The notes: generated from the sequence alone by a model not told the origin. A DNA stretch of 30,410 bases from Myxococcaceae bacterium (GCA_036389955.1 DASVVJ010000282.1:1-30410); one strand, 5' to 3'. Shown: positions 1-28,223, counted from the stretch's first letter. A program made the numbers and translations.

Positions 1-1737
1 CTCCACGTAGGGCCGGTGCAGCGGACCATGGCGGCCGTCGAAGACGAGGTCCGACGAGAAGGTGACCAGGCGCGCGCCGTAGCGCGTGCAGGCGCTGGCC
101 AGCTGCGCGGGCGCGGTGGCGTTGACGTGCAGGCACTGCTCCACGTCGTGCTCGGCCTGGTCCACGCGCACGTAGCCGGCCGCGTTGACCACCGCCCAGG
201 GCCGCAGCCGTTCCATCATGCCATCCGCCGACCGTGGATCCGTCAGGTCCAGCTCCGACCGCGAGAGCAGGTGGTAGGCAATACCGCGCGCGTCGCAGAG
301 CCTCGCGAAGGCGCGGCCCAGGGTACCGGTGGCCCCGAGAATGACGAGCGGCCGTGGCCCCCGATCCTCCATGTCGACGCCTGGCCCTGCGGGGGGGCGT
401 GAGTACGAGCGCCCCTCGACGGGGGTATGAAAGAGCCGGTCCGGCCGGCGCCACCAGCCGGGCTGGGAGAGGATGGGATCCTCGTCCCGCGAGCGCCCCG
501 CCGCCAGGTCTCGCATCAGCTGCGCCAGCGCGGTAGGCCGGGGCAGCGGCGCGCGCACGTCGTACGGGCCAGGCTCGTAGAAGCCTTCCACACGCTGCAC
601 CAGCACGTTCCAGTCGAAGGCCCCCAGCAGCGACCAGACCGTCACCGCCCGCACGTCCACGCCCTCGCCACGCAGCTCGATGGCCGTGTCCCAGAACTCC
701 TTGAGCCAGCGAAGCTGCTCCTCCCGGGTCGAGCCCAGGTGGGCCTCCGTTACCGCGATGGGCAACCCGTAGCGCTGCCACGTCTCGCGAATCACGCCGC
801 CCACGCCAATGGGCAGGTCCAGCCGCGCGCGCACCGCCTCCATGTCCGCGAAGCGCCTCCCCTCCTCTTCCATGTGGGCCCGGGCCGGGTAGGCACTCAA
901 GTTCTCGTCGAGGTAGCGGTCGCTGCTCGCATAGTGGTTGACGCCCACCACGTCCGGCGGGCAGCGGTTCTCCAGGAACCACTCCAGCTCCGCCTCGCCG
1001 ATGCCCCACTGGAGCATGTGGCCGTAGAGCGGATGCTGCCGATCCAGCTTCCCGCAGAGCAGGTCGAGCGACAGCCACCGGCGCTGGTTCTGGAAGGCCG
1101 CCAGCGAGGCCAGCGCGGGCGTGCTGTAGCGCCGGCCCAGATCCTCGGTCTGGATGAGCCGCGCGAGCGGGTTGACAGTGCGCACGGCCCTCATCGCGAG
1201 CACCACGGCCCGGCACTCGGTCACCAGCGCCCGGGCGAAGGTGGCGTGGTCTCTTCCATGGGGATACCAGACGCCATACAGCCCGCTGAAGCGCGCGGTC
1301 GTCAGCGGCTCGTTGACGGGCGTGAAGGCGTCCACCCACGGGTAGCGCTCGGCCACCCGGAGCGCGAACTCCGCCAGCCCGGTGGCGAACGAGGGATCCA
1401 CCAGGCTGGTGTGGCGCGGCCCGCTGCCGTGGTGGGTCAGCCCGACGATGGGGCGGATGTTCAGCTCACGCAGCCCCCCGAGCCGCTCGTCCGGCCAGCT
1501 CCAGTCGATATTCCCGAAGCCGTCTGGCGCTACCCGCTCCCACAGCACCGGGTAGCGGATGGCGCGAATGCCCAGGCCTGCGAAGAGGCTCAGGTCGCTG
1601 GCGCGCGTCGCGTGACCGTTGCGCTCCATCTGGTCGAAGAACACGTCGCCCACGCGGTTGACGGTGCACTCGAGGCCCCCCCACAGCTCGAGTTTCCGCA
1701 AGCCGTCCCCATGGGAATAAGACGTAGCAGAGTCCAT
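1..1737 (-). CDS. Partial fusion protein with an N-terminal family-1 glycoside-hydrolase-like domain and a C-terminal dTDP-4-dehydrorhamnose reductase (RmlD)-like domain. The C-terminus runs off the window start.
   Basis: My own translation of the minus strand from the ATG at 1735-1737 gives MDSATSYSHGDGLRKLELWGG... The ORF is uninterrupted and in frame through 372 (MEDRGPRPLVILGATGTLGRAFARL..., the Rossmann GxxGxxG of the RmlD family) and continues to position 1. The N-domain carries the GH1 acid/base motif 'PVNEPL' and a nucleophile-region 'VTEAHLG'. The ORF is absent from the supplied track, which seems to drop ORFs that leave the window. Confidence 0.8.
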   Translation of the reverse strand, partial: MDSATSYSHGDGLRKLELWGGLECTVNRVGDVFFDQMERNGHATRASDLSLFAGLGIRAIRYPVLWERVAPDGFGNIDWSWPDERLGGLRELNIRPIVGLTHHGSGPRHTSLVDPSFATGLAEFALRVAERYPWVDAFTPVNEPLTTARFSGLYGVWYPHGRDHATFARALVTECRAVVLAMRAVRTVNPLARLIQTEDLGRRYSTPALASLAAFQNQRRWLSLDLLCGKLDRQHPLYGHMLQWGIGEAELEWFLENRCPPDVVGVNHYASSDRYLDENLSAYPARAHMEEEGRRFADMEAVRARLDLPIGVGGVIRETWQRYGLPIAVTEAHLGSTREEQLRWLKEFWDTAIELRGEGVDVRAVTVWSLLGAFDWNVLVQRVEGFYEPGPYDVRAPLPRPTALAQLMRDLAAGRSRDEDPILSQPGWWRRPDRLFHTPVEGRSYSRPPAGPGVDMEDRGPRPLVILGATGTLGRAFARLCDARGIAYHLLSRSELDLTDPRSADGMMERLRPWAVVNAAGYVRVDQAEHDVEQCLHVNATAPAQLASACTRYGARLVTFSSDLVFDGRHGPLHRPYVE

Positions 1738-1796
1738 AAATCACCACGCTCCGAGGCGGGGCGAGGAGGCATTCGCGTGCGCCTCTGCTCGCCGAT

Positions 1797-1817
1797 GAGA
1801 GTTCAAGCTGAACTCTC
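1797..1817 (-). terminator. Perfect 9-bp stem with a 3-nt loop (GAGAGTTCA-AGC-TGAACTCTC) just downstream of the hflX stop. It is a candidate intrinsic terminator or attenuator without a U-tract.
   Basis: The inverted repeat is read directly from the sequence. It is AT-richer than its surroundings and lies 57 nt after the hflX stop and 60 nt before the next gene start. Confidence 0.35.
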
Positions 1818-1873
1818 AACTTCGGAAGCGTGGGGGTCTTTGGACATTGGCCCCAGGTGCATGGGCCCTGGGT

Positions 1874-3568
1874 TCAATGACCAGGCAGCTCATCCTGGAA
1901 CGAGGCCCCGCTGGCCGTGAGCGACTTGCCCTCGTGCCAGAGCAGCTCCTCGACCCGGAGGAGCAGCTCTGTCAGCCCTTCTCCCCGCGCCGCGCTGATC
2001 GCGATGCCATCCTGGTGATGCGCGGTGAGGTGGGCCAGGTGCCCTTGCATTCCCTCCTCCAGCAGATCGCTCTTGTTGAAGACGAGCAGGCGCGGTGTTT
2101 CGTGCAGGCCCAGGCTCTTCAGGATGTGCTCCACGGCTTCTATCTGAAGCAGGTGTTCCGGATCCGAAACATCCACCACGTGCAGGAGCAGGTCCGCGTC
2201 CGTGAGCTCCTCGAGCGTGGCGCGGAAGGCGCTCACCAGCGTCTGCGGCAGCGCGCGGATGAACCCCACCGTGTCGGTGATGACCACCTCGCGGTCTCGC
2301 GGGAAGCGCAGCCTGCGGCTGGCCGGATCGAGCGTGGCGAACAGCTTGTTCTCCGCCACCACGTCCGAGTTCGTCAGCCGGTTGAGGAGCGTGGACTTGC
2401 CCGCGTTCGTGTAACCGACGATGGCGAGGACCGGCACGTCGTGCCGGGCCCGCTGCTGGCGGCGCACCTGCCGGCTGACACTCAGCGCGTCGATTCTCTT
2501 CTCGAGCATGGAGATGCGGGCGCGCACGCGGCGTCGATCCACCTCGAGCTTCGTCTCGCCGGGCCCTCGCCCGCCAATGCCGCCCGCGAGCCGCGAGAGG
2601 CCCTCGTCCCGCTGGGCGAGGCGCGGAAGCATGTACCGGAGCTGGGCGAGCTCGACCTGCAGCCGGCCCTCGGCGCTGTGCGCGTGCTGAGCGAAGATGT
2701 CGAGGATGAGCTGGGTGCGGTCCAGTACCTTCAGGCTCGTGTGCTCGGAGATGTGCCGGGCCTGGGACGGCGTCAGCTCGTGGTCGAAGATGATCATGTC
2801 CGCGAAGAGCTGCATCGCCCGGAGGTTCAGCTCCTCCAGCTTCCCCCGGCCAATCACGAAGCGCGGATCGACGCGCGGCCGCGACTGGATGAGCACGTCG
2901 AGCACCTGGACGCCGGCGGTGCGCGACAGCTCCTTCAGCTCGGCCATGGAGGCCTCGGCCAGCTCGCGGCCTCCGAGCGCCACCCCGACGAGGATGGCGC
3001 GCCCCTGGACGGCGGTCTCCCGGCCGGCGACGGAGCGCCCGAAAGCCGCCTCGATCTCCTCGGCCCGCGCCACGGGATCAAAGTCCAGCCCGTGGACACC
3101 CTCGAAAGCTTCGGTCTTCCAGAACTTCGCTCGCTCGCCAGTCGCCTCGGCGTCGAGATACCCAAGATAGACTTTGCCTGGCAGGCCGTCGGGCTGCGTG
3201 ACGATCGCGCAGACGAGATCCAGCCGGAGCAAGGCCAGGTCGGTGAGATCGTCCGGCGTGAGCGGCTCATCTTTCAAGTGCGTGTGAACGAGCCGCAGGC
3301 CCCGCAGACGCGTGTCGCCCGCGCGAACGCGGCCCACCTCGGGGAGCTCCAACTTGAACGCGTCCCCGACGATGACATGCTCGATCTCTCCGCGCCGGTT
3401 GATGAGGGCGCCCACCTGACGCCCCACCTCGTGGGAGAGCTCGGAGAGGTGGCGAGCGAGCTCGGGGCTTGTCACCTCGTCAGGCCTGACGCGCCGCCGG
3501 TAAGTCGCCTCCAGGCGCTTCCACTGATTCGGCTTGAGTCCCAGGGTGTTTCCGCTGATGGCAGGAAT
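1874..3568 (-). CDS. hflX: GTPase HflX in a long form with a ~150-aa N-terminal extension.
   Basis: The 533-aa track ORF shows the HflX hallmarks: ...DRTQLILDIFAQHAHSAEGRLQVELAQLRYMLPRL..., G1 'GYTNAGKSTLLN', 'DTVGF', 'NKSD'. The conserved reading frame continues upstream of the track's GTG (3475) with ISGNTLGLKPNQWKRLEATYRRRVRPDEV and contains no ATG/GTG/TTG. A strong SD (AAGGAGAG, complement of 3574-3581) sits 7 nt before an in-frame ATT (3568). The start is therefore uncertain (ATT 3568, ATC 3559 or GTG 3475). Confidence 0.8.
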   Translation of the reverse strand: MPAISGNTLGLKPNQWKRLEATYRRRVRPDEVTSPELARHLSELSHEVGRQVGALINRRGEIEHVIVGDAFKLELPEVGRVRAGDTRLRGLRLVHTHLKDEPLTPDDLTDLALLRLDLVCAIVTQPDGLPGKVYLGYLDAEATGERAKFWKTEAFEGVHGLDFDPVARAEEIEAAFGRSVAGRETAVQGRAILVGVALGGRELAEASMAELKELSRTAGVQVLDVLIQSRPRVDPRFVIGRGKLEELNLRAMQLFADMIIFDHELTPSQARHISEHTSLKVLDRTQLILDIFAQHAHSAEGRLQVELAQLRYMLPRLAQRDEGLSRLAGGIGGRGPGETKLEVDRRRVRARISMLEKRIDALSVSRQVRRQQRARHDVPVLAIVGYTNAGKSTLLNRLTNSDVVAENKLFATLDPASRRLRFPRDREVVITDTVGFIRALPQTLVSAFRATLEELTDADLLLHVVDVSDPEHLLQIEAVEHILKSLGLHETPRLLVFNKSDLLEEGMQGHLAHLTAHHQDGIAISAARGEGLTELLLRVEELLWHEGKSLTASGASFQDELPGH

Positions 3569-3720
3569 GGTGGCTCTCCTTGCGCGTGAAGCGTGCCGCT
3601 CCGTTCGGGTCTCACGCTAATCACTGCGAAGGTCATGTGAGCCCTGCGGGCTGAGGGGCGCTACCGTACGGCTCCTCCCTCGTGAGGGGGCAAGCTGCCG
3701 CTCAACACCCAGGCAAGCAC

Positions 3721-3737
3721 CGCCAGGGCCCCTGGCG
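3721..3737. other. Perfect palindrome CGCCAGGG-C-CCCTGGCG located 22 bp downstream of the PilT-like stop. It may be a protein-binding site or part of a terminator.
   Basis: Read directly from the sequence. Confidence 0.25.
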
Positions 3738-3758
3738 GTGACTTGAAACTGCCTCCGG

Positions 3759-5528
3759 TCACTTCTGCGCCGGCGCAGCCCCGGCGGAGGCCTCCGCTGG
3801 CGACTCCACCTTGAAACCCGCGCGCTCGAGCATGGCGCGCATCTCGCTGCGGGCCACGGACTTGTTGAGCGCCTCGATCGGTTGAACCAGCTTTTTCTTG
3901 GCCAGATCCAACAGCGCGTCGTTGAGCATCATCATTCCGTGCCCGCGCGAGGTCTGCATCACCGAGGGAATCTGGAACGTCTTGCCCTCACGGATGAGGT
4001 TGGACACCGAGCTGGTGCACAGGAGCACCTCCTGCGCCGCCACGCGCCCACCACCGATCTTCTTGCACAGCGTCTGGGAGATGACGCCCTTGAGCGACTC
4101 GGAGAGCATCATGCGGATCTGCGCCTGACGGTCCGCCGGGAACTGGTCGATGATGCGGTCCACCGTGGAGGCCGCCGTGTTGGTGTGCAGCGTGCCGAAC
4201 ACCAGGTGCCCCGTCTCCGCCGTCTCGATGGCGATGGCGATCGTCTCCAGGTCTCGCATTTCTCCCACCAGCACCACGTCCGGATCCTCGCGCAGCGCCG
4301 CGCGCAGCGCGTCCTTGAAGGAGTCGGTGTGGACGCCAATCTCGCGCTGGTTCACCAGGCACTTCTTGTTCGGGTGAACGAACTCGATGGGGTCCTCGAT
4401 GGTGATGATGTGGTCTTCACGATGGCGGTTGATGTAGTCGACCATCGACGCCAGCGTGGTGGACTTGCCCGAGCCGGTGGGACCGGTGACGAGCACCAGC
4501 CCCTTGGTGAGGAAGCACAGGTCCAGAATCTGCTTGGACAGCCCCATCTCCTCCGCGCTGCGGATGGTGTTGGGAATCTGCCGCAGCACGGCGCCAATGC
4601 CCTTGCGGTCGGCGAAGACGTTGACGCGGAAGCGCGCCGCCGGCGTCTCGTAGGCGAAGTCCGTGTCGCGCTTTTTCTCCCACTGCTGCTTGTTCTTCTC
4701 CGGAGCGATGCTGAAGACCATTTCCTTGAGGCGCGGGGGCGAAACCACGCCGAACTCCGTCATGGGGACCATGTCTCCATCGATGCGCAGGTGCGGCACC
4801 GTATCGCTGGACATATGAAGGTCCGAGGCACGGCGGGCCAGCATCGTCTCCAGCAGCGAGAGCATCTGCGCCGCGGACTCGCTCTGCTGCGCCAGGTCTG
4901 CGCCCGGCGAGACGGACGGCGCCGGCTCCGGCGGGGCGGCGGGTACCGCCGGGGGCGCCGCGGGAGGCGGAGGGGCCGGAGCGGTTGCCTTCTCCACCGG
5001 CTTGGGGGCGGGTTGCGCGGCGGGAGCCATGACGGGCGGCCGGGTCGGCGTTACCGCCGGAGCGGGGCGCGGTGCCGCCGCGGCCGGAGCCGCCGCTGGA
5101 GCAGCCGCCGGAGCCTGAGGGGCACTCGCCACGGTGCTCTGGGCCATCCCCAACATGTCGGCGGGAGAGGCCAGCTCGAGCTTCTCTCCCGAGTCCTCGA
5201 ACTCGAACGTGCCATACATGGCATGCGGGGCGAAGGGCACCATCGACACCCGCGCATGTTGCTGGTCCATCTCGAACTTCACCTGGACCGCGCCTCCGGG
5301 AGAGGCATAGGGAAAGATGGTGGTCCCCGGGGCCGGGAAGGTCGCCCGTTGATCCGAAGGCACCAGCTCCGCGACCGCTCCGATGATCTGCTGGGTGGTG
5401 AGGTTCTGCTTCAGTACCGGCACGATCCCCGAGGTGGTGCGGATGCTCACGCCCCCACCGGTCTCCATGAGGATTTCCAGACCAGAGTCCTTGAGAAGCT
5501 TCTCGATGATGTAGTCAATCCTGGCCAT
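3759..5528 (-). CDS. PilT-family type IV pilus retraction ATPase paralogue. It has an extra ~100-aa N-terminal domain and a ~70-aa Pro/Ala-rich linker ahead of the canonical PilT core.
   Basis: Walker A 'GPTGSGKSTT', Asp box, Walker B 'DVVLVGEMRD', His box 'TLHTN' and the PilT-specific 'NLIREGK' motif are all present. The ATG at 5526-5528 lies 4 nt after the upstream gene's TGA (TGACATCATGG), indicating coupling. The track's TTG at 5579 would overlap the upstream gene and is judged less likely. Confidence 0.85.
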   Translation of the reverse strand: MARIDYIIEKLLKDSGLEILMETGGGVSIRTTSGIVPVLKQNLTTQQIIGAVAELVPSDQRATFPAPGTTIFPYASPGGAVQVKFEMDQQHARVSMVPFAPHAMYGTFEFEDSGEKLELASPADMLGMAQSTVASAPQAPAAAPAAAPAAAAPRPAPAVTPTRPPVMAPAAQPAPKPVEKATAPAPPPPAAPPAVPAAPPEPAPSVSPGADLAQQSESAAQMLSLLETMLARRASDLHMSSDTVPHLRIDGDMVPMTEFGVVSPPRLKEMVFSIAPEKNKQQWEKKRDTDFAYETPAARFRVNVFADRKGIGAVLRQIPNTIRSAEEMGLSKQILDLCFLTKGLVLVTGPTGSGKSTTLASMVDYINRHREDHIITIEDPIEFVHPNKKCLVNQREIGVHTDSFKDALRAALREDPDVVLVGEMRDLETIAIAIETAETGHLVFGTLHTNTAASTVDRIIDQFPADRQAQIRMMLSESLKGVISQTLCKKIGGGRVAAQEVLLCTSSVSNLIREGKTFQIPSVMQTSRGHGMMMLNDALLDLAKKKLVQPIEALNKSVARSEMRAMLERAGFKVESPAEASAGAAPAQK

Positions 5529-5532
5529 GATG

Positions 5533-6003
5533 TCAGCGCGAGAGGGGTTCCACGGAGGAGATGTAGCGTTTATTGACAAGCGCTATGCGCTTGCCCTGGA
5601 CGAGACGAATGAACGGCGGTGTGTCGTTGAGATAGTCGTTGAGCCGGGTCCGGCCCTCGGGCTGCATGTAGACGATGAGCCCTTGCAGCCGCTGGCCATT
5701 CACCAGCCGGAGCTGCACTTCGTGCTCCGTCAGGATGGTGAGGCGATCCTCTTCGCGGAACTCGTGATCGACGTCGGTCTGCGCCACCACGATGGCGGCA
5801 CTGTTGAGGAAGGTGATCATCCCCGTGGCCACGTCTTGAGCGGGAATGAATTTCATCTCTCCGTTGAGTAGGTCCGACAGCCGCTCACCCTCAGTGTACT
5901 CGGGGACCCCGGTCATGAGGAACACGGAGACCTCCCGGGCCTCACCCTCGGGAGAGGAGATCTGAGCAAGCACACGGCGTTTGGGAACGCGAAACTCTTC
6001 CAC
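5533..6003 (-). CDS. Hypothetical 156-aa protein translationally coupled upstream of the PilT-like ATPase. It is a possible regulatory partner.
   Basis: GTG start at 6003 is preceded by the SD AAGGAAG with an 8-nt spacer, and the in-frame upstream stop is 16 codons away. I recognise no family. Its codon usage ends in A/T more often than neighbouring genes. Confidence 0.6.
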   Translation of the reverse strand: MEEFRVPKRRVLAQISSPEGEAREVSVFLMTGVPEYTEGERLSDLLNGEMKFIPAQDVATGMITFLNSAAIVVAQTDVDHEFREEDRLTILTEHEVQLRLVNGQRLQGLIVYMQPEGRTRLNDYLNDTPPFIRLVQGKRIALVNKRYISSVEPLSR

Positions 6004-6204
6004 GGGAGCTGCTTCCTTGGTCGTAACGAGGGGGTCTGCGCCGGAATCCTACTGGCAGTGGTGCTCCCGCACCAAGGCCCAGCTCCGTGGCGGGCTACCC
6101 GTCAGGCCAGGTCGAGGCACGGGCCCTTTCCGGGCTGAATTTCTCTCCAAGGGTCTCGTCTGCGGGAGCCGTTGCTCGGATTTTCACCCTTAATGAGGAT
6201 CTCC

Positions 6205-6975
6205 ATGAACATCTCGAAGCGTCAGTACCTTGGCATGCTCTCCTTGTCGTTCGGTCTGGTCGTCACCGGCTGTGGAGGAGAGACTCCGGGCGAATCCCCG
6301 GACCCCCCTGCGCCCCCTGCGCCCCCTGCGCCCCCTGCGCCCCCTCCGCCCCAGGGAGGGACGGGCAACAACTCGGGAATCGCCGTGGTCTGCGGCGAGG
6401 AGACCTGTGTTGCGCCGGGAGATGCCTACACGAGCCACTTCACCGGGCCGAACTGCGATGGTGAGGAGTACTACTACACACCCTACTTCTCTGGGACGAC
6501 CGACCCGAATCCGGACCAAATCATCCGGCCGTGGGACGGCAAGGGCATGGCCGGCACGGAGCTGCGCACCGTGATGGTGCGCTCGGTCCGAGACGCCATG
6601 GGCACCTGCCTGGTGAACCAGTGGCCCGACGGCAACACGCTGAGCAACTTCGTGCGCGTCTATCGCGAGGCCAACCCCTACGCGCTCTGCGGCGAGGACA
6701 GCTGCAAGTACCCCAGGGGCCGGTACTACAGCCACTTCACCGGGCCGAACTGCGATGGCGAGGAGTACTACTACACGCCCTACTTCTCTGGGACGAACGA
6801 CCCGAATAAGGACGGGATCATCCGCTCGTGGGATGGCAAGGGCCTGGCGGGAACACAGCTCGCCTCGGCCAACACCCGCTCGTCTCGTGACAGCAGCGGC
6901 CACTGCAACGCCAACCAGTGGCCTGCCGGCAACCCGCTCACCAACATGGTGCGCATCTACCGCACCACCCGCTAG
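6205..6975 (+). CDS. Secreted lipoprotein of 256 aa made of a Pro/Ala linker and two tandem ~99-aa Cys-containing repeats of unknown family.
   Basis: ATG at 6205 follows the SD GAGGA with a 5-nt spacer. Signal peptide MNISKRQYLGMLSLSFGLVVTG|C has a lipobox. The repeats share C-GE-x2-C ... YxSHFTGPNCDGEEYYYTPYFSGTxDPNxDxIIRxWDGKGxAGTxL ... NQWPxGNxLxNxVRxYR. Confidence 0.8.
   Translation: MNISKRQYLGMLSLSFGLVVTGCGGETPGESPDPPAPPAPPAPPAPPPPQGGTGNNSGIAVVCGEETCVAPGDAYTSHFTGPNCDGEEYYYTPYFSGTTDPNPDQIIRPWDGKGMAGTELRTVMVRSVRDAMGTCLVNQWPDGNTLSNFVRVYREANPYALCGEDSCKYPRGRYYSHFTGPNCDGEEYYYTPYFSGTNDPNKDGIIRSWDGKGLAGTQLASANTRSSRDSSGHCNANQWPAGNPLTNMVRIYRTTR
6304..6348 (+). repeat. 9-bp tandem microsatellite (CCCCCTGCG)x4 plus one degenerate copy, encoding (PAP)n.
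   Basis: Read directly from the sequence. It lies inside the lipoprotein linker and is an in-frame 9-bp unit, so it is a candidate slippage-prone tract. Confidence 0.8.
6391..6972 (+). repeat. Two tandem ~297-bp DNA repeat units encoding the duplicated protein domain.
   Basis: AGCCACTTCACCGGGCCGAACTGCGATGG(T/C)GAGGAGTACTACTACAC(A/G)CCCTACTTCTCTGGGACGA occurs at 6433 and again at 6730, which is 297 bp apart and about 95% identical. Confidence 0.8.
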
Positions 6976-7086
6976 AGCGCCGAACAGGTCAGGTCACGCC
7001 GCGCAGGTAGCGCGTGGCGACCTCAAGGTTTTGGACGACCGCGAGTCGCCTGAGGTCAAAGAGGTTGCGGCGGGTGCCTTGATAAC

Positions 7087-7100
7087 GGGCCTTCGGGCCC
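7087..7100. terminator. GGGCC-TTCG-GGCCC hairpin with a UUCG-type tetraloop in the convergent intergenic region. It is a candidate terminator for either flanking gene.
   Basis: Read directly from the sequence. It sits between the convergent stops at 6975 and 7196. Confidence 0.3.
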
Positions 7101-7195
7101 TGGCGGTTGGCTAGCCTGGCTCCAAGACGGCAAGGGCCACGGGAGAAGCCCACAGCCCGCAGTCCCCTCCAGGCCAGCCCCTGCCTGCCGCTTTA

Positions 7196-8023
7196 CTACG
7201 CGCCGAGCACCTGCTTGGCGCGAGCGTAATAGGCCTCGCGGGCGGCCAGTCCGTTGAACCCGCCGTTGATGCGGCGGGTGATCTCCCGGAAGTTGCCCTG
7301 ATCCGCGTAGCTGTTCAGGTTGCGGCTGTTCCAGAACCACGCGGCGGTGCGGAAGCCCACGTCCACGTCCGCCGCGCGCCGGGGGTTGCCCTCCAGATCG
7401 ATGCCCAGGGCCTTGCCCGCCGCCCGGTAATTGGCGCGGCCCGTGAGCTGAATGGGCCCGCGGCCCTTGTAGCGCACGCCGTCACCCGGATGAATGTTGC
7501 CCAGGTCCTTGCGGCCCTCGTACGCCGCACCCGAGGCGAGCTCCTCGAAGTAGCGGAACTCGGCGCTCTCGTGCGCCAGCTGCGCCAGGAACGCTGCCTG
7601 CCGCTTCGGGGTGTTGATGCCCGCTTCGACCATTGCCTTGTTGAGGTGCGGCAGCACCTCGTTGGCCCTCGCCGTCGACAGGTGCGGCATGATCTGCCGC
7701 AGCTGCTGCACCGAGACCCCACCCTTCACCGGGCCCGGATCCGTGGGCCGGGTCGGCGCGGCAGCCAGCGCGGCCCACGTCCGGGGCCCCACCACGCCAT
7801 CCGCGCCCAGGCCCTTGGCGCGCTGGAAGGATTTCACCGCCGCCGTGGTCTTCGGGCCGAAGTCCCCATCCGCGGCGCCCGGGCTGAAGCCGGCCGCGGC
7901 CAGCTTGCGCTGGAGGTCCACCACCTGGGGACCGCGAGCGCCTTCCCTCAGGGTGGGCGGCGCGAGGGCCGCCGTCGCGGCCAGAGGAGCAGTGGTAGGG
8001 CGTACAGTCGAGGCGGAAAGCAT
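7196..8023 (-). CDS. Secreted peptidoglycan-binding protein with a C-terminal GH19 chitinase/lysozyme-like domain.
   Basis: PG_binding_1-like 'VKSFQRAKGLGADGVVGPRTWAAL' and GH19 catalytic-region motifs 'AAFLAQLAHESAEFRYFEE...YKGRGPIQLTGRANY...FWN' are present. ATG at 8023 (MLSASTVRPTTAPLAATAALA) is chosen because the longer track ORF would overlap the upstream gene. Tandem stop TAG-TAA. Confidence 0.75.
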   Translation of the reverse strand: MLSASTVRPTTAPLAATAALAPPTLREGARGPQVVDLQRKLAAAGFSPGAADGDFGPKTTAAVKSFQRAKGLGADGVVGPRTWAALAAAPTRPTDPGPVKGGVSVQQLRQIMPHLSTARANEVLPHLNKAMVEAGINTPKRQAAFLAQLAHESAEFRYFEELASGAAYEGRKDLGNIHPGDGVRYKGRGPIQLTGRANYRAAGKALGIDLEGNPRRAADVDVGFRTAAWFWNSRNLNSYADQGNFREITRRINGGFNGLAAREAYYARAKQVLGA

Positions 8024-8199
8024 GGCAAGGGATCCAGTTCTCAGGAAATGAGCTGAATGCCCCGTTATCGTGTGCGCCCCTGTGGGAGTTGCGCAGACAT
8101 CTAAAAAGAGGGCCCCAAAGGGAACCCGGGCCGCAGCCACGGAGCCGGGGTCACTCCCAGACGCCCCCCTGCCAGCGCAGGCCCTGCCCGCAGAGGCGA

Positions 8200-19772: not shown

Positions 19773-20084
19773 TCACCCCTTGCTCAGCACGCGCTTGGCC
19801 ACATCGCGCGCGCGGTGGAAGGCCCAGCGCGCGGCGCGGTAGCTGAGGGTCTGCGGATGCTGCTCGGCGGAGTTGAGCTTGAGCCGCAGCTGCTCCAGCT
19901 CATTCTCCACGTCCTTGCGGCGCCGCTCGGACTCAATGAGGCGCTGGGTCAGGTCCAGCACGCGGGCGTTGGCGATCTCGAAGTCGCGCAGGGCCTGCAC
20001 GAGGTTGACGCGGTCCAGGTCCGCGGTGTTGGAGCGGCTGTCCTTCTCCTGAGGAGTCGAGCCGATAATGGTCATCTGGGTCAT
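19773..20084 (-). CDS. Small coiled-coil protein B of 103 aa, paralogous to protein A.
   Basis: It has a coiled-coil core and the C-terminal 'WAFHRARDVAKRVLSKG' motif. It sits directly upstream of a glycosyltransferase, as protein A does. Confidence 0.65.
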   Translation of the reverse strand: MTQMTIIGSTPQEKDSRSNTADLDRVNLVQALRDFEIANARVLDLTQRLIESERRRKDVENELEQLRLKLNSAEQHPQTLSYRAARWAFHRARDVAKRVLSKG

Positions 20085-21202: not shown

Positions 21203-21296
21203 GGGGCAGCCCTCTATCGCACAGGGGGCGGAATGCCAAGACGCCCTGGCTCCTGGGACTGAGGGTAAAACGAGCCGTCCCTCCGCTGCCCGGCCG

Positions 21297-21995
21297 CTAC
21301 CCCTTGGTGGGCGGCTCTAACTGCTGCTCTCGGGGGTAATAAAGGCCCAGCGGGTCCCAGACGTACTTCTCGATCGGCACGAAGGTCATGTGACTGACGG
21401 CATACCGCTCGGCAAAGCGCATGAAGCGCTCGGTGACGATGATCCTTCCCCATAGGCCCCGTGGCCGGAACACGTCTTCACCGCTCCAGGTTGCAAGCTC
21501 CAGGGCGAGCCCGTCGATCGCGTCAATCCCCGTGTAGCGGCACCAAATGCACTTCATCGGTTTGCCGATCCATAGGCGGCTGCGCTCCATGTCCAGTGCC
21601 GGGAGGCCATGAGCCGGCATGACGAAAACGTAGGGAGGCGGTGGAGGAGGCTTTGAGCCACGGCGCTTCCTCTTTACACGCAGCACCTTCACGGGGTGAA
21701 AGCCACTGAGCCCCGTGAGCCCCTCGGCCTTGAACGCTTCCGCAAAGCGTTCCGTCACTAGCAAGCCGCCGCTGGGGCCGTCTACGAGATCCCCGAACTC
21801 CTGGCCATGCAGTTCCAGTTCTCCCTGGTGGGGAGGCTGCCAGGTCAGAAAAGTGAGGGGATCCCCGCATTGGGGACATAGCGACGCAGGACCGACTTTG
21901 AGGTCAATCGTGCTGAACTCGGTATCGTGCGTACCTCCGAGTAGCTTATCCAGGACGAAGAAACGCGTAGCGTGCGCGGAATCGTCAGAAGCCAT
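21297..21995 (-). CDS. Two-CxxC(G) motif protein of 232 aa from the myxobacterial cysteine-rich paralogous family. It is the putative immunity protein of the upstream toxin.
   Basis: 'CPQCGDPL' and 'CIWCRYTG' motifs are present. Its ATG overlaps the end of the toxin gene by 11 nt (ATGGCTTCTGA). GC content is lower than in the flanks. Confidence 0.65.
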   Translation of the reverse strand: MASDDSAHATRFFVLDKLLGGTHDTEFSTIDLKVGPASLCPQCGDPLTFLTWQPPHQGELELHGQEFGDLVDGPSGGLLVTERFAEAFKAEGLTGLSGFHPVKVLRVKRKRRGSKPPPPPPYVFVMPAHGLPALDMERSRLWIGKPMKCIWCRYTGIDAIDGLALELATWSGEDVFRPRGLWGRIIVTERFMRFAERYAVSHMTFVPIEKYVWDPLGLYYPREQQLEPPTKG

Positions 21996-23235
21996 CAGGG
22001 AACCTCGCGCGCATCTCGGGCCGACTGTAGATTTGCCGCAAGTAGGCCTCAAACTCCGCAGGGGTTGCGTTGCGGTAGGTACCAAGCCAGCTGATGACTT
22101 CCTCATCTACCTTGCGGTGCCATGCCTGATAACCGTTGTGGGACTCCTTGTCAGCCGCGCGTGTGATGAAGCGGGGGTCCCTCTCGGTGTAATGACCTCG
22201 GAGTGTGGCGTGTTCGTCGAGCTTCTTGGCGATCCGCTTGGAGATCGGGTGGTGTAGTTGCCCTGTCGGTCCGGTTGTTGGCGGACCTCCTCCCATGACT
22301 TGGGCCGCCATGGCCATCGCGGTGCCAGGGAGAGAAATCATGACGGTGCTTCCAACGACGGCCACCGTGCTCACCTGGCCCACATTCGCCAGGTTGAGAT
22401 TCAACTGGGAGGCGCTTACCGAAGCGGCCTGAGGAAAGTTGGGCAGCATGGGCAGCCGTGAGGCCAATGCCGCAGCGCCTCCCGTCATCCCGTAGCTCAC
22501 GACCACGGTCACGGCGAGGACCATGACCCGTGCCACCCTGGGGCCTACCCTGTGCGCGAAGCGCTGCCCGGCCTGCTCCAGTTCCTCGATGACGGTGGCT
22601 TTGTCCGTGGCGCTCTTCAGCTCGCGGCTGGCATCTACCAGTTCCAGGAAGGTGTCCACCCCCAGGTAAACCAGCATCAATGCGGTCATGACAGCCGCCA
22701 CCTTGGTGAACACGGGCTCGGGGTTGGCGGCCAAAGCAACCCAGGTGACAAGGCCCGTGGCAATGACGGTGAAGAAGAGCTGCGGGGCCAGGGTCTCCTC
22801 TACTGCCCTGGAGATGCTCTCTCTGAGTGGATCCAGCGAGAGGCCCAGGGCGACTCCCAGTTTGTCCCACTCGCTCAGTCCCATCACATCGTCGAGCAGG
22901 GAGAGGCAGTTGTCTCTTCGCTGGCCAGGCTCGCAGATGCCGCCGAAGCTCTTACTCATGAGACTCCGCCACCGGGAGTCCGCGTCGTTACTGGCGTAGG
23001 AGGCGCGTACCAGCCAGCCTTGCTGGGGAGCGCGGAGGTGCAAGGGCGCGTTCAGCAGCAGTCCCGTCAGGGACTCCTCGAACGCGTCCGCCTCTACCTT
23101 CACGGGCCTGTTCGAGGTGGTTGGCCTGTACTCCTGTGGTTCGCCGTGCCCCGTGTCCAAGCGCACAACGGGAGTAGTGGCGCACGCGGTAACCAGGCTC
23201 AACATCCAGGCCGCAACGACTCGACGAAATGCCAA
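21985..23235 (-). CDS. Lipoprotein polymorphic toxin (SitA-like) of 416 aa with a C-terminal LHH/AHH-type HNH/EndoVII-fold nuclease-like domain.
   Basis: TTG start follows the SD GGAGGA. Signal peptide MAFRRVVAAWMLSLVTA|C carries a lipobox. The central region has hydrophobic segments. The C-terminus reads '...GQLHHPISKRIAKKLDEH...HNGYQAWHRKV'. The gene is immediately followed, with overlap, by a small immunity-type gene. Confidence 0.6.
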   Translation of the reverse strand: MAFRRVVAAWMLSLVTACATTPVVRLDTGHGEPQEYRPTTSNRPVKVEADAFEESLTGLLLNAPLHLRAPQQGWLVRASYASNDADSRWRSLMSKSFGGICEPGQRRDNCLSLLDDVMGLSEWDKLGVALGLSLDPLRESISRAVEETLAPQLFFTVIATGLVTWVALAANPEPVFTKVAAVMTALMLVYLGVDTFLELVDASRELKSATDKATVIEELEQAGQRFAHRVGPRVARVMVLAVTVVVSYGMTGGAAALASRLPMLPNFPQAASVSASQLNLNLANVGQVSTVAVVGSTVMISLPGTAMAMAAQVMGGGPPTTGPTGQLHHPISKRIAKKLDEHATLRGHYTERDPRFITRAADKESHNGYQAWHRKVDEEVISWLGTYRNATPAEFEAYLRQIYSRPEMRARFPDGF

Positions 23236-23261
23236 GAGATGTCCTCCAGGAGGTTCTGAGC

Positions 23262-27369: not shown

Positions 27370-27384
27370 GGTGTTCTTCGTGGC

Positions 27385-28113
27385 CTAGCGCCAGGTGGCG
27401 GAGAGTTCAGGGAAGAAACGCTGGTGCATGCGCTGGCAGTAGCTCACCAGGTTCTCACGCGACCGGCCAAAGTCCTTCACCGGACTGGACAGCCCCATGC
27501 CGAGCATGTTGCCCACGTACGCGTAGACGGTGGCGTCCACCGTGGTGGGCTGCTCGCCGAGGAAGAAGGGCCTGGAGCCCAGGTAGTCGGAGACCGCCGT
27601 GAGGTCCTCCTGGCCCAGGCGATGCACTTCGTCGGCCGAGTGGCGCCCCATGCCCTGGGCCTGGAGCTGCGCCAGGAACATCTGCCGGTACTGGTCCGTG
27701 GCCGGCGGGCGGTGCTCGGCGGGAAGGAAGTCCAGCATGCCGATGATGAGCTCACGGTAGTGCGACCAGTTGCGCTCGTCCTTGTAGCGCTCGTGGATGA
27801 TGACCCAGTAGAAGTGCTCCTTGAGCATCCGGCGGAACGACGTGGCCACGGCGCGCTGCTCGGCGGAGAGTGCGGCGTCGGGATCCTTGCCCCGGGCGGC
27901 CTTCAGGTGCGAGACGATCAGCGTCGAGTCGCCGATGCGCGTGCCGTCCTGCTCGACGATGTAGGGAACCTTTCCCTTGGGCGCATTGGCGATGTCCAAC
28001 GGCGCCACCTCATAGGGCACGCCCGTGATGCGCAGCCACGTCTCCAGTTTCATACAGGCAGGGCTCACGTTGGGCAGCCCCCACGCACCCCGAGTCTGGA
28101 CCAGACGGATCAT
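27385..28113 (-). CDS. Glutathione S-transferase-family protein (thioredoxin-like N-domain), located upstream of and co-oriented with the P450.
   Basis: ATG 28113 follows the SD GGGGAGA. The gene is 15 bp from the P450 start. Confidence 0.6.
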   Translation of the reverse strand: MIRLVQTRGAWGLPNVSPACMKLETWLRITGVPYEVAPLDIANAPKGKVPYIVEQDGTRIGDSTLIVSHLKAARGKDPDAALSAEQRAVATSFRRMLKEHFYWVIIHERYKDERNWSHYRELIIGMLDFLPAEHRPPATDQYRQMFLAQLQAQGMGRHSADEVHRLGQEDLTAVSDYLGSRPFFLGEQPTTVDATVYAYVGNMLGMGLSSPVKDFGRSRENLVSYCQRMHQRFFPELSATWR

Positions 28114-28223
28114 CTCATGTCTCCCCAAGCGAGTGAGGGTGTGCAGTGTACAGCTTCGCAGGCCCTGGGAAGGCGAGTAACCTGGTCACGGGTTCATCCG
28201 TAGACGACCGTGGAGGAAGCGCC

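Follow-up and report, generated by a model that had tools for sequence, protein, structure and literature searches.

Two overlapping minus-strand genes, sitA5 and sitI, on a contig of 30,410 bp from the metagenome-assembled genome of a Myxococcaceae bacterium (GCA_036389955.1, DASVVJ010000282.1; hereafter the window) form what we are highly confident is a polymorphic toxin and its immunity protein. The more specific reading, that the locus is a sitAI5 kin-discrimination toxin-immunity cassette acting by the mechanism proposed below, is well supported and quite probable. The predicted toxin is a SitA5-family lipoprotein with a swappable C-terminal tip. This tip is likely, at a somewhat lower level of confidence, an AHH-like nuclease of the HNH/EndoVII superfamily, and this assignment is the weakest link of the mechanism.

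The identity of the toxin is carried by its N-terminal three quarters. The NCBIfam model NF050093 (SitA5_escort) matches residues 11–249 with 241.5 bits (cutoff 160, E 1.1e-71) and covers profile positions 2–260 of 262; Pfam has no model for this escort region. Hydropathy peaks fall at residues 149–171, 174–200, 234–258, and 291–309. Full-length relatives are 70–90% identical, and RefSeq gives one of them, from Archangium lansingense (71% identity, same tip), the name ‘SitA5 family polymorphic toxin’. When residues 1–273 were used to search a database, 435 relatives were returned, many of which bear the same name in RefSeq or UniRef, and in the best 120 of these the escort region is 68–78% identical to that of the window toxin. 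Conservation among SitA5 proteins ends abruptly past ISLPxTAVAM (around residue 309), and homology is lost after about residue 312 in an alignment of 11 proteins. Beyond this break, the 107 near-full-length escort relatives carry 20 unrelated C-termini, as judged by clustering of the last 85 residues, including an HNH-like group of 50, a Pfam AHH tip (68 bits), a Pfam LHH tip, and Tox-RNase-5. Clustering on the last 125 residues was dropped, as the shared linker chained unrelated tips together. Such a modular escort-plus-toxin design has been described for SitA5 (PMC8546572). An earlier reading, made from the nucleotide sequence without database searches (the sequence-only reading), had proposed a SitA-like polymorphic toxin with a lipoprotein signal (LVTA before the Cys) and hydrophobic central segments, and had suggested comparing the locus for polymorphic C-termini. 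Our analyses agree with it on each of these points: the lipobox is present with L14 and C18 invariant in the 11 SitA5 proteins, the hydrophobic segments number four, the C-termini are polymorphic as just described, and the family is narrowed to SitA5 by the above-cutoff NF050093 match and the escort/tip break. Both open reading frames (ORFs) were likewise found on the minus strand where that reading had placed them, with the 11-nt overlap that it gave.

The association between tip and immunity gene was examined at seven independent loci: the window, L002, L004, L006, L087, L089, and L090. In all seven, an immunity homologue lies directly 3′ of a gene ending in the GQxHH tip; SitA5 escorts and short Cys-rich proteins alike serve as its carrier. 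Every one of these loci keeps the junction ...AGGTTyCCnnATGGCnTCTGA, so that the same nucleotides code the conserved end of the toxin (RFPxGF and stop) and the conserved start of the immunity protein (MAS...). In the window, sitA5 starts with TTG at 23235–23233 and stops with TGA at 21987–21985, inside the sitI ORF, which begins with ATG at 21995–21993; the overlap is therefore exactly 11 nt (21985–21995). The Shine-Dalgarno sequence of sitI (GAGG, 22006–22003), seven nt upstream of its start, sits within the last codons of sitA5, and the GGAGG of sitA5 falls within the 23 bp of upstream DNA conserved with L004. As read from the sequence, this conserved dual-coding junction implies that sitA5 and sitI are translationally coupled. 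Identity of the tips and identity of the immunity proteins are correlated (Spearman 0.75 over 21 non-independent pairs, with shared ancestry uncorrected). The ratio of nonsynonymous to synonymous substitution rates (dN/dS) is 0.11–0.28 for sitA5 and 0.11–0.30 across the escort, tip, and immunity regions, and thus indicates purifying selection on all three parts.

Two of these loci have settings of their own. At L006 (Archangium lansingense, 4611–8665), a tandem array of an insertion sequence (IS) transposase (DDE_3), an ORF truncated to 125 aa, and an orphan immunity gene precedes a complete sitA5-sitI pair, whose allele family is that of the window. At L089 (Pyxidicoccus trucidator, 1–5409), a sitA5-sitI pair and a second immunity paralogue follow type I restriction-modification (HsdM/HsdS) and Mrr genes, a setting that resembles a defence island.

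Of the two cysteine motifs of the immunity protein, CPQCG (residue 40) and CIWCR (residue 149), only the first has the glycine, and the other is a plain CxxC. Cysteines 40, 43, 149, and 152 are invariant across 33 aligned homologues, and more than 500 homologues were found overall. The window protein scores 18.4 bits against the double-CXXCG family PF09535 (cutoff 25) and 14.1 bits against Imm11 (PF07791, cutoff 22.1), while at E < 0.01 PF09535 matches 28 of the 33 aligned homologues and PF07791 matches 15; several homologues also have precomputed matches to one or the other. The SitI6 equivalog TIGR02264 was considered and rejected, as the score is 21.6 bits against a cutoff of 100.15 and the partner is SitA5, not SitA6. 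A fold search gave the immunity protein the fold of MXAN_0049 (PDB 6a4c) as its unique match. Only this search reached MXAN_0049; querying PDB sequences with the immunity profile or with an Imm11-like relative did not. The Imm11 prototype, MXAN_0049, has been validated by experiment as the immunity protein of the AHH nuclease MXAN_0050, to which it binds (PMC12077131). Imm11 shares a Pfam clan (CL0767) with double-CXXCG, and Myxococcus xanthus DK1622 has eight ahh-imm11 sitAI5 loci (PMC12077181). From comparative genomics, the toxin partners of Imm11 are Tox-AHH, Tox-HNH, and Tox-SHH (PMC3482391).

The tip itself belongs to a widespread family. Its motifs in the window toxin are GQLHH at residues 325–329 and HNGYQAWH at 366–373, and an exhaustive profile search recovered at least 613 representative clusters (50% identity), 160 of them at E <= 1e-30. 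In all of the 150 best hits the tip lies at the extreme C-terminus, of proteins ranging from 86 to 2,753 aa. The long carriers are Rhs-repeat proteins, with one outer-membrane protein (OMP) beta-barrel fusion; further carriers are SitA5 proteins and short Cys-rich proteins of 157–190 aa with a hydrophobic N-terminus. The residues Q, HH, H, G, H, L, and Y are invariant in the family. By contrast, the residue before HH varies among the 150 relatives (L in 32, I in 30, V in 17, E in 12, and others), and “LHH” is therefore not a signature of the family. A Tox-LHH (PF14411) identity was also considered and set aside, with no match to its hidden Markov model (HMM) and leucine at that position in so few relatives. 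A genuine LHH tip, on the SitA5 protein P0410, is unrelated to that of the window. When the tip family HMM was run against 119 SitA5 proteins, only members of its own family and one frameshifted copy matched. This copy is in P0415, a 377-aa SitA5 protein whose tip opens as GQLHHVISKRIA and then runs out of frame, a decayed copy of the same allele family.

The short carriers (L002, 6001–7192; L087, 594–1743) combine the hydrophobic N-terminus with a Cys-rich ..C.CK.G....C..L stretch and the GQxHH tip. In each case the same immunity gene comes next, again overlapping by 11 nt. Neither Pfam nor NCBIfam has a family for these carriers, and RefSeq calls one of them ‘Wall-associated protein precursor’. 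These proteins may represent a separate small delivery form of the tip toxin.

Is the tip a nuclease? On one hand, AHH (PF14412) is the Pfam family matched by the most tip relatives, namely 5 of 41 scanned singly, below threshold and with a best E of 0.0034. The three relatives with retrieved coordinates score 12.8–14.5 bits (cutoff 22.3). In these three the match begins at the HH motif (profile 15–16), and in two of them it extends to the HxG..WH helix (profile 81–87), the third covering only profile 16–49. In a confident AlphaFold (AF2) model (predicted local distance difference test, pLDDT, 94), HH closes a short strand, a helix and another short strand come next, and W-H opens a further helix. 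Because weak AHH matches occur in register in a few relatives and the immunity partner is of the AHH type, we favour the nuclease reading. On the other hand, a set of results weighs against it. Pfam searches with the full toxin, its last 171 aa, and its last 105 aa gave nothing relevant at E <= 10, and PF14412 in particular did not match the window protein even at that threshold. NCBIfam had no match to the tip, a PDB sequence search with the tip profile gave chance helical hits only, and a fold search with the toxin gave no match. An hhalign comparison of the tip family with four Pfam-positive SitA5-AHH tips was not significant, with only the HxG..WH / HKGPHPERYH stretch aligned. Lastly, the AHH signature, [AG]HH, N, H, H, Y (PMC3482391), is only partly present: HH, H366, and H373 are kept throughout, the position ahead of HH varies where A/G is expected, W-H stands for Y-H, and no conserved Asn of the signature was identified in the tip.

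These results refine the sequence-only reading in several respects. Its LHH...H...WH signature is present in the window toxin, but the leucine is no feature of the family, being found in only 32 of 150 relatives. Its suggested search of the C-terminus against nuclease HMMs returned neither an AHH nor an LHH match for the window protein. The HNH/EndoVII assignment that it drew from the signature nevertheless stays plausible, given the weak in-register AHH matches in relatives and the AHH-type partner, against which stands the lack of any Pfam, PDB, or fold match for the window toxin. In the same way, its placement of the immunity protein in the double-CxxCG family agrees with the two CxxC motifs and the four invariant cysteines, and is weakened by the second motif without G and by family models that score below their cutoffs.

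The mechanism that we propose follows the family literature (PMC8546572, PMC5562445, PMC12077181). SitA5 would be lipidated at C18 and sorted to the outer membrane, from which TraAB-dependent outer-membrane exchange would pass it to neighbours with a compatible TraA receptor. The escort domain would then bring the tip into the recipient cytoplasm; for the SitA5 alleles tested so far, entry depends on ExbB1/TonB-type machinery (PMC8546572). There, the tip of about 100 residues, with its cluster of HH328–329, H366, and H373, is predicted to act as a divergent AHH-like metal nuclease and degrade nucleic acid. Clonemates would be spared because cytoplasmic, non-transferred SitI binds and blocks the tip. 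Neither traA nor traB is visible in the window, so that the route through outer-membrane exchange is an assumption based on the family to which the toxin belongs.

Other explanations of the locus were weighed. The nearest of them keeps the SitA5 toxin-immunity pair and makes the tip a separate fold outside HNH/EndoVII, for example an RNase or other metal-dependent hydrolase, against which an Imm11-fold protein happens to protect. The missing database matches would fit such a tip, but we consider it rather improbable: its elements (a short strand with HH, an inserted helix, another short strand, and H-x-G...(W)H where a helix begins) follow one another in an order parallel to that of AHH, no other Pfam family recurs as often among the weak matches of its relatives as AHH, which lies in register, and Imm11-clan partners have been reported with AHH, HNH, and SHH nucleases (PMC3482391, PMC12077181). 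In addition, the beta-beta-alpha-metal core is small and readily missed by whole-domain fold searches. A related view, which we regard as unlikely although a little less so, is that the tip is a distinct, as yet unnamed polymorphic-toxin domain whose fold and chemistry are perhaps not AHH/HNH, and that a zinc-binding, four-Cys branch of the Imm11 clan, intermediate to Imm11 and double-CXXCG, would be its own dedicated neutraliser.

Some findings count against an active sitAI5 cassette as such. No promoter or terminator was found for it, and only 26 nt separate the stop of the S58-family peptidase gene upstream from the sitA5 start; with the missing tra genes, and with orphan immunity genes (L006) and frameshifted toxins (P0415) of the same family elsewhere, this would suit a cassette that is decaying, silent, or kept mainly as immunity against the toxins of neighbours, its own toxin being neither expressed nor delivered here. 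We give this very little weight, as both ORFs are intact with strong ribosome-binding sites, all family-invariant residues are kept, and the dN/dS values point to continued purifying selection. The immunity protein, for its part, falls under every curated cutoff in Pfam and NCBIfam. With weak zinc-finger sequence echoes around its first CxxC, it could be taken for a zinc-ribbon accessory factor of the lipoprotein, such as a chaperone or regulator, and not for an immunity protein. This is the least credible of the alternatives, since its unique fold match is to the validated MXAN_0049, it is strictly coupled to the GQxHH tip whatever the N-terminal carrier, and it occurs in extra and orphan copies (L006, L089), as is typical of immunity genes. 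A sitAI5 cassette with an AHH-like tip therefore remains our preferred reading.

The composition and neighbourhood of the two genes support their horizontal acquisition as a discrete two-gene unit. The 1.94-kb stretch that they occupy has a GC content of 62.6%, where the window averages 67.9% (sd 2.0); it is the second lowest of 570 sliding windows, and the ten lowest all overlap the cassette. GC at third codon positions (GC3) is 73% and 78% in the two genes and 88–95% in neighbouring ones. When the window was compared by blastn with L004, a Joint Genome Institute (JGI) metagenome contig, the homology covered exactly 21279–23258 (1.98 kb, 82.5% identity), which includes 18 bp beyond the stop of sitI and 23 bp ahead of the sitA5 start, and the genes flanking it in L004 are unrelated to those of the window. 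The nearest genome, the Myxococcaceae metagenome-assembled genome L007, is 86–92% identical at the DNA level from 23260 to the window end, one indel excepted, and shares nothing to the left of 23260, which places the cassette on a synteny breakpoint; a clean empty site was not shown. Low GC and GC3, the block at an unrelated locus, and the synteny break together argue for acquisition; the lower GC content relative to the flanks that had been put forward from the sequence is thereby borne out, and the horizontal origin supported. No integrase, IS element, or convincing flanking repeats were found in the window; around the cassette there are short two-copy matches only, near chance level.

One of the short matches, TCTTGGCATT[C/T]CG as read on the minus strand, is a direct repeat of 13 nt at 21229–21241 and 23225–23237 (12 of 13 positions identical). 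One copy spans the sitA5 start and its first codons (MAFR), and the other, 56 nt downstream of the sitI stop, would again read MAFR. As a cassette boundary it was rejected, because it lies off the homology boundaries and is absent from L004, and a chance origin is possible. It could also be the vestige of a neighbouring sitA5 start.

In comparison with known systems, the allele is ordinary in architecture. It shares with the Myxococcus SitAI5 loci, among them SitA5-Mf1, whose tip is HNH, and SitA5-Mf2, whose tip is AHH (PMC8546572), a lipoprotein signal, a SitA5 escort, a modular C-terminal toxin, and an immunity gene directly downstream in one operon. It differs in its tip, which is missed by the Pfam AHH and HNH models and belongs to a separate GQxHH family, known here from sequence. 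In the MXAN_0050/MXAN_0049 pair of M. xanthus, the toxin is delivered by PAAR and T6SS (type VI secretion system), whereas the window toxin is a predicted lipoprotein with an escort domain; the window immunity protein is 19% identical to MXAN_0049, has no sequence-level match to it, and has two invariant CxxC pairs. SitA6/SitI6 combine a DUF2380 toxin with a double-CXXCG immunity protein (TIGR02264/PF09535). The window immunity protein resembles SitI6 in its two CxxC motifs, its weak PF09535 and TIGR02264 matches, and its Imm11 Pfam clan, and differs from it in scoring far under the equivalog cutoff (21.6 against 100), in lacking the G of the second motif, and in having a SitA5 partner. Rhs/YD-repeat toxins carry the same GQxHH tip at the extreme C-terminus (E about 1e-32), but on a shell of 1,300–2,750 aa, presumably for T6SS or other secretion, where the window carrier is a lipoprotein escort of 312 residues.

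The SitA5 family is thus already known, with a curated model and a 71%-identical, same-tip protein named by RefSeq. What the locus adds is modest: its tip family and the four-Cys immunity branch, neither of which is covered by Pfam or NCBIfam, and the presence of the module on non-Sit carriers. Because these databases miss both families, the window immunity gene (“hypothetical protein VF815_10130”) and its homologues are deposited as hypothetical proteins, and short toxin forms either as ‘hypothetical protein’ or under the misnomer already mentioned. HMMs built from the tip and immunity alignments would allow several hundred toxin and immunity clusters to be named. The genome to which the window belongs holds at least one further SitA5 gene (VF815_39015) and one further homologue of the immunity gene (VF815_33155). 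Myxobacterial genomes hold 25–80 sitAI loci each (PMC8546572), and SitA/SitI repertoires serve as strain ‘barcodes’ that decide which cells merge into one multicellular group; each new allele is therefore one more incompatibility determinant. With its dual-coding junction and sharply bounded 1.98-kb unit, this locus also offers a clean case for studying the movement of cassettes without a recognisable mobile element.

Table. Positions of the sitAI5 cassette and its parts in the window
Feature	Position	Strand	Basis
Whole sitAI5 cassette, taken as the transferable unit	21279..23258	-	blastn block common with L004; lowest-GC stretch
sitA5 gene, predicted 416-aa lipoprotein polymorphic toxin	21985..23235	-	NF050093 match; full-length relatives
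Shine-Dalgarno GGAGG, 7 nt 5′ of TTG	23243..23247	-	direct sequence reading
Predicted signal peptide with lipobox L14-V-T-A-C18, Ala at +2	23182..23235	-	L14 and C18 invariant
Escort domain and conserved pre-toxin linker, residues 19–312, four hydrophobic segments	22300..23181	-	
C-terminal toxin domain, residues 313–416, GQxHH...HxGYxxWH, putative AHH-like metal-dependent nuclease	21988..22299	-	
sitI, predicted immunity gene, 232 aa, Imm11/double-CXXC clan	21297..21995	-	
11-nt overlap ATGGCTTCTGA, toxin end (..DGF and stop) and immunity start (MAS..)	21985..21995	-	conserved junction

Several observations concern the surroundings of the cassette. In Corallococcus exercitus (L011, 2183–4944), two SitA5-like ORFs (escort about 32% identical) lie just upstream of an S58 peptidase homologue that corresponds to the gene flanking the window cassette, and sit loci may have come to land repeatedly in the neighbourhood of this peptidase. 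A 103-aa ORF on the minus strand (19773–20084) has a genome-typical GC3 of 0.92, is matched by neither Pfam nor NCBIfam, and shares 4 nt with the GT2 glycosyltransferase gene downstream of it. About 800 bp of the window (27370–28164) are absent from L007, which is otherwise collinear on both sides at 87–92%; this stretch holds a 247-aa ORF similar to glutathione S-transferase (GST) (27385–28128, minus strand), with matches to GST_N_4, GST_C_6, and Tom37. Further away, a 762-aa ORF (9928–12216, minus strand) matches MVP_shoulder (2.9e-45), Vault_2 (1.5e-32), Vault (5.5e-31), and Vault_3 (1.4e-21), and is a bacterial homologue of Major Vault Protein (MVP), the shell protein of eukaryotic vaults; bacterial MVP homologues have been reported (bioRxiv 10.1101/872010).

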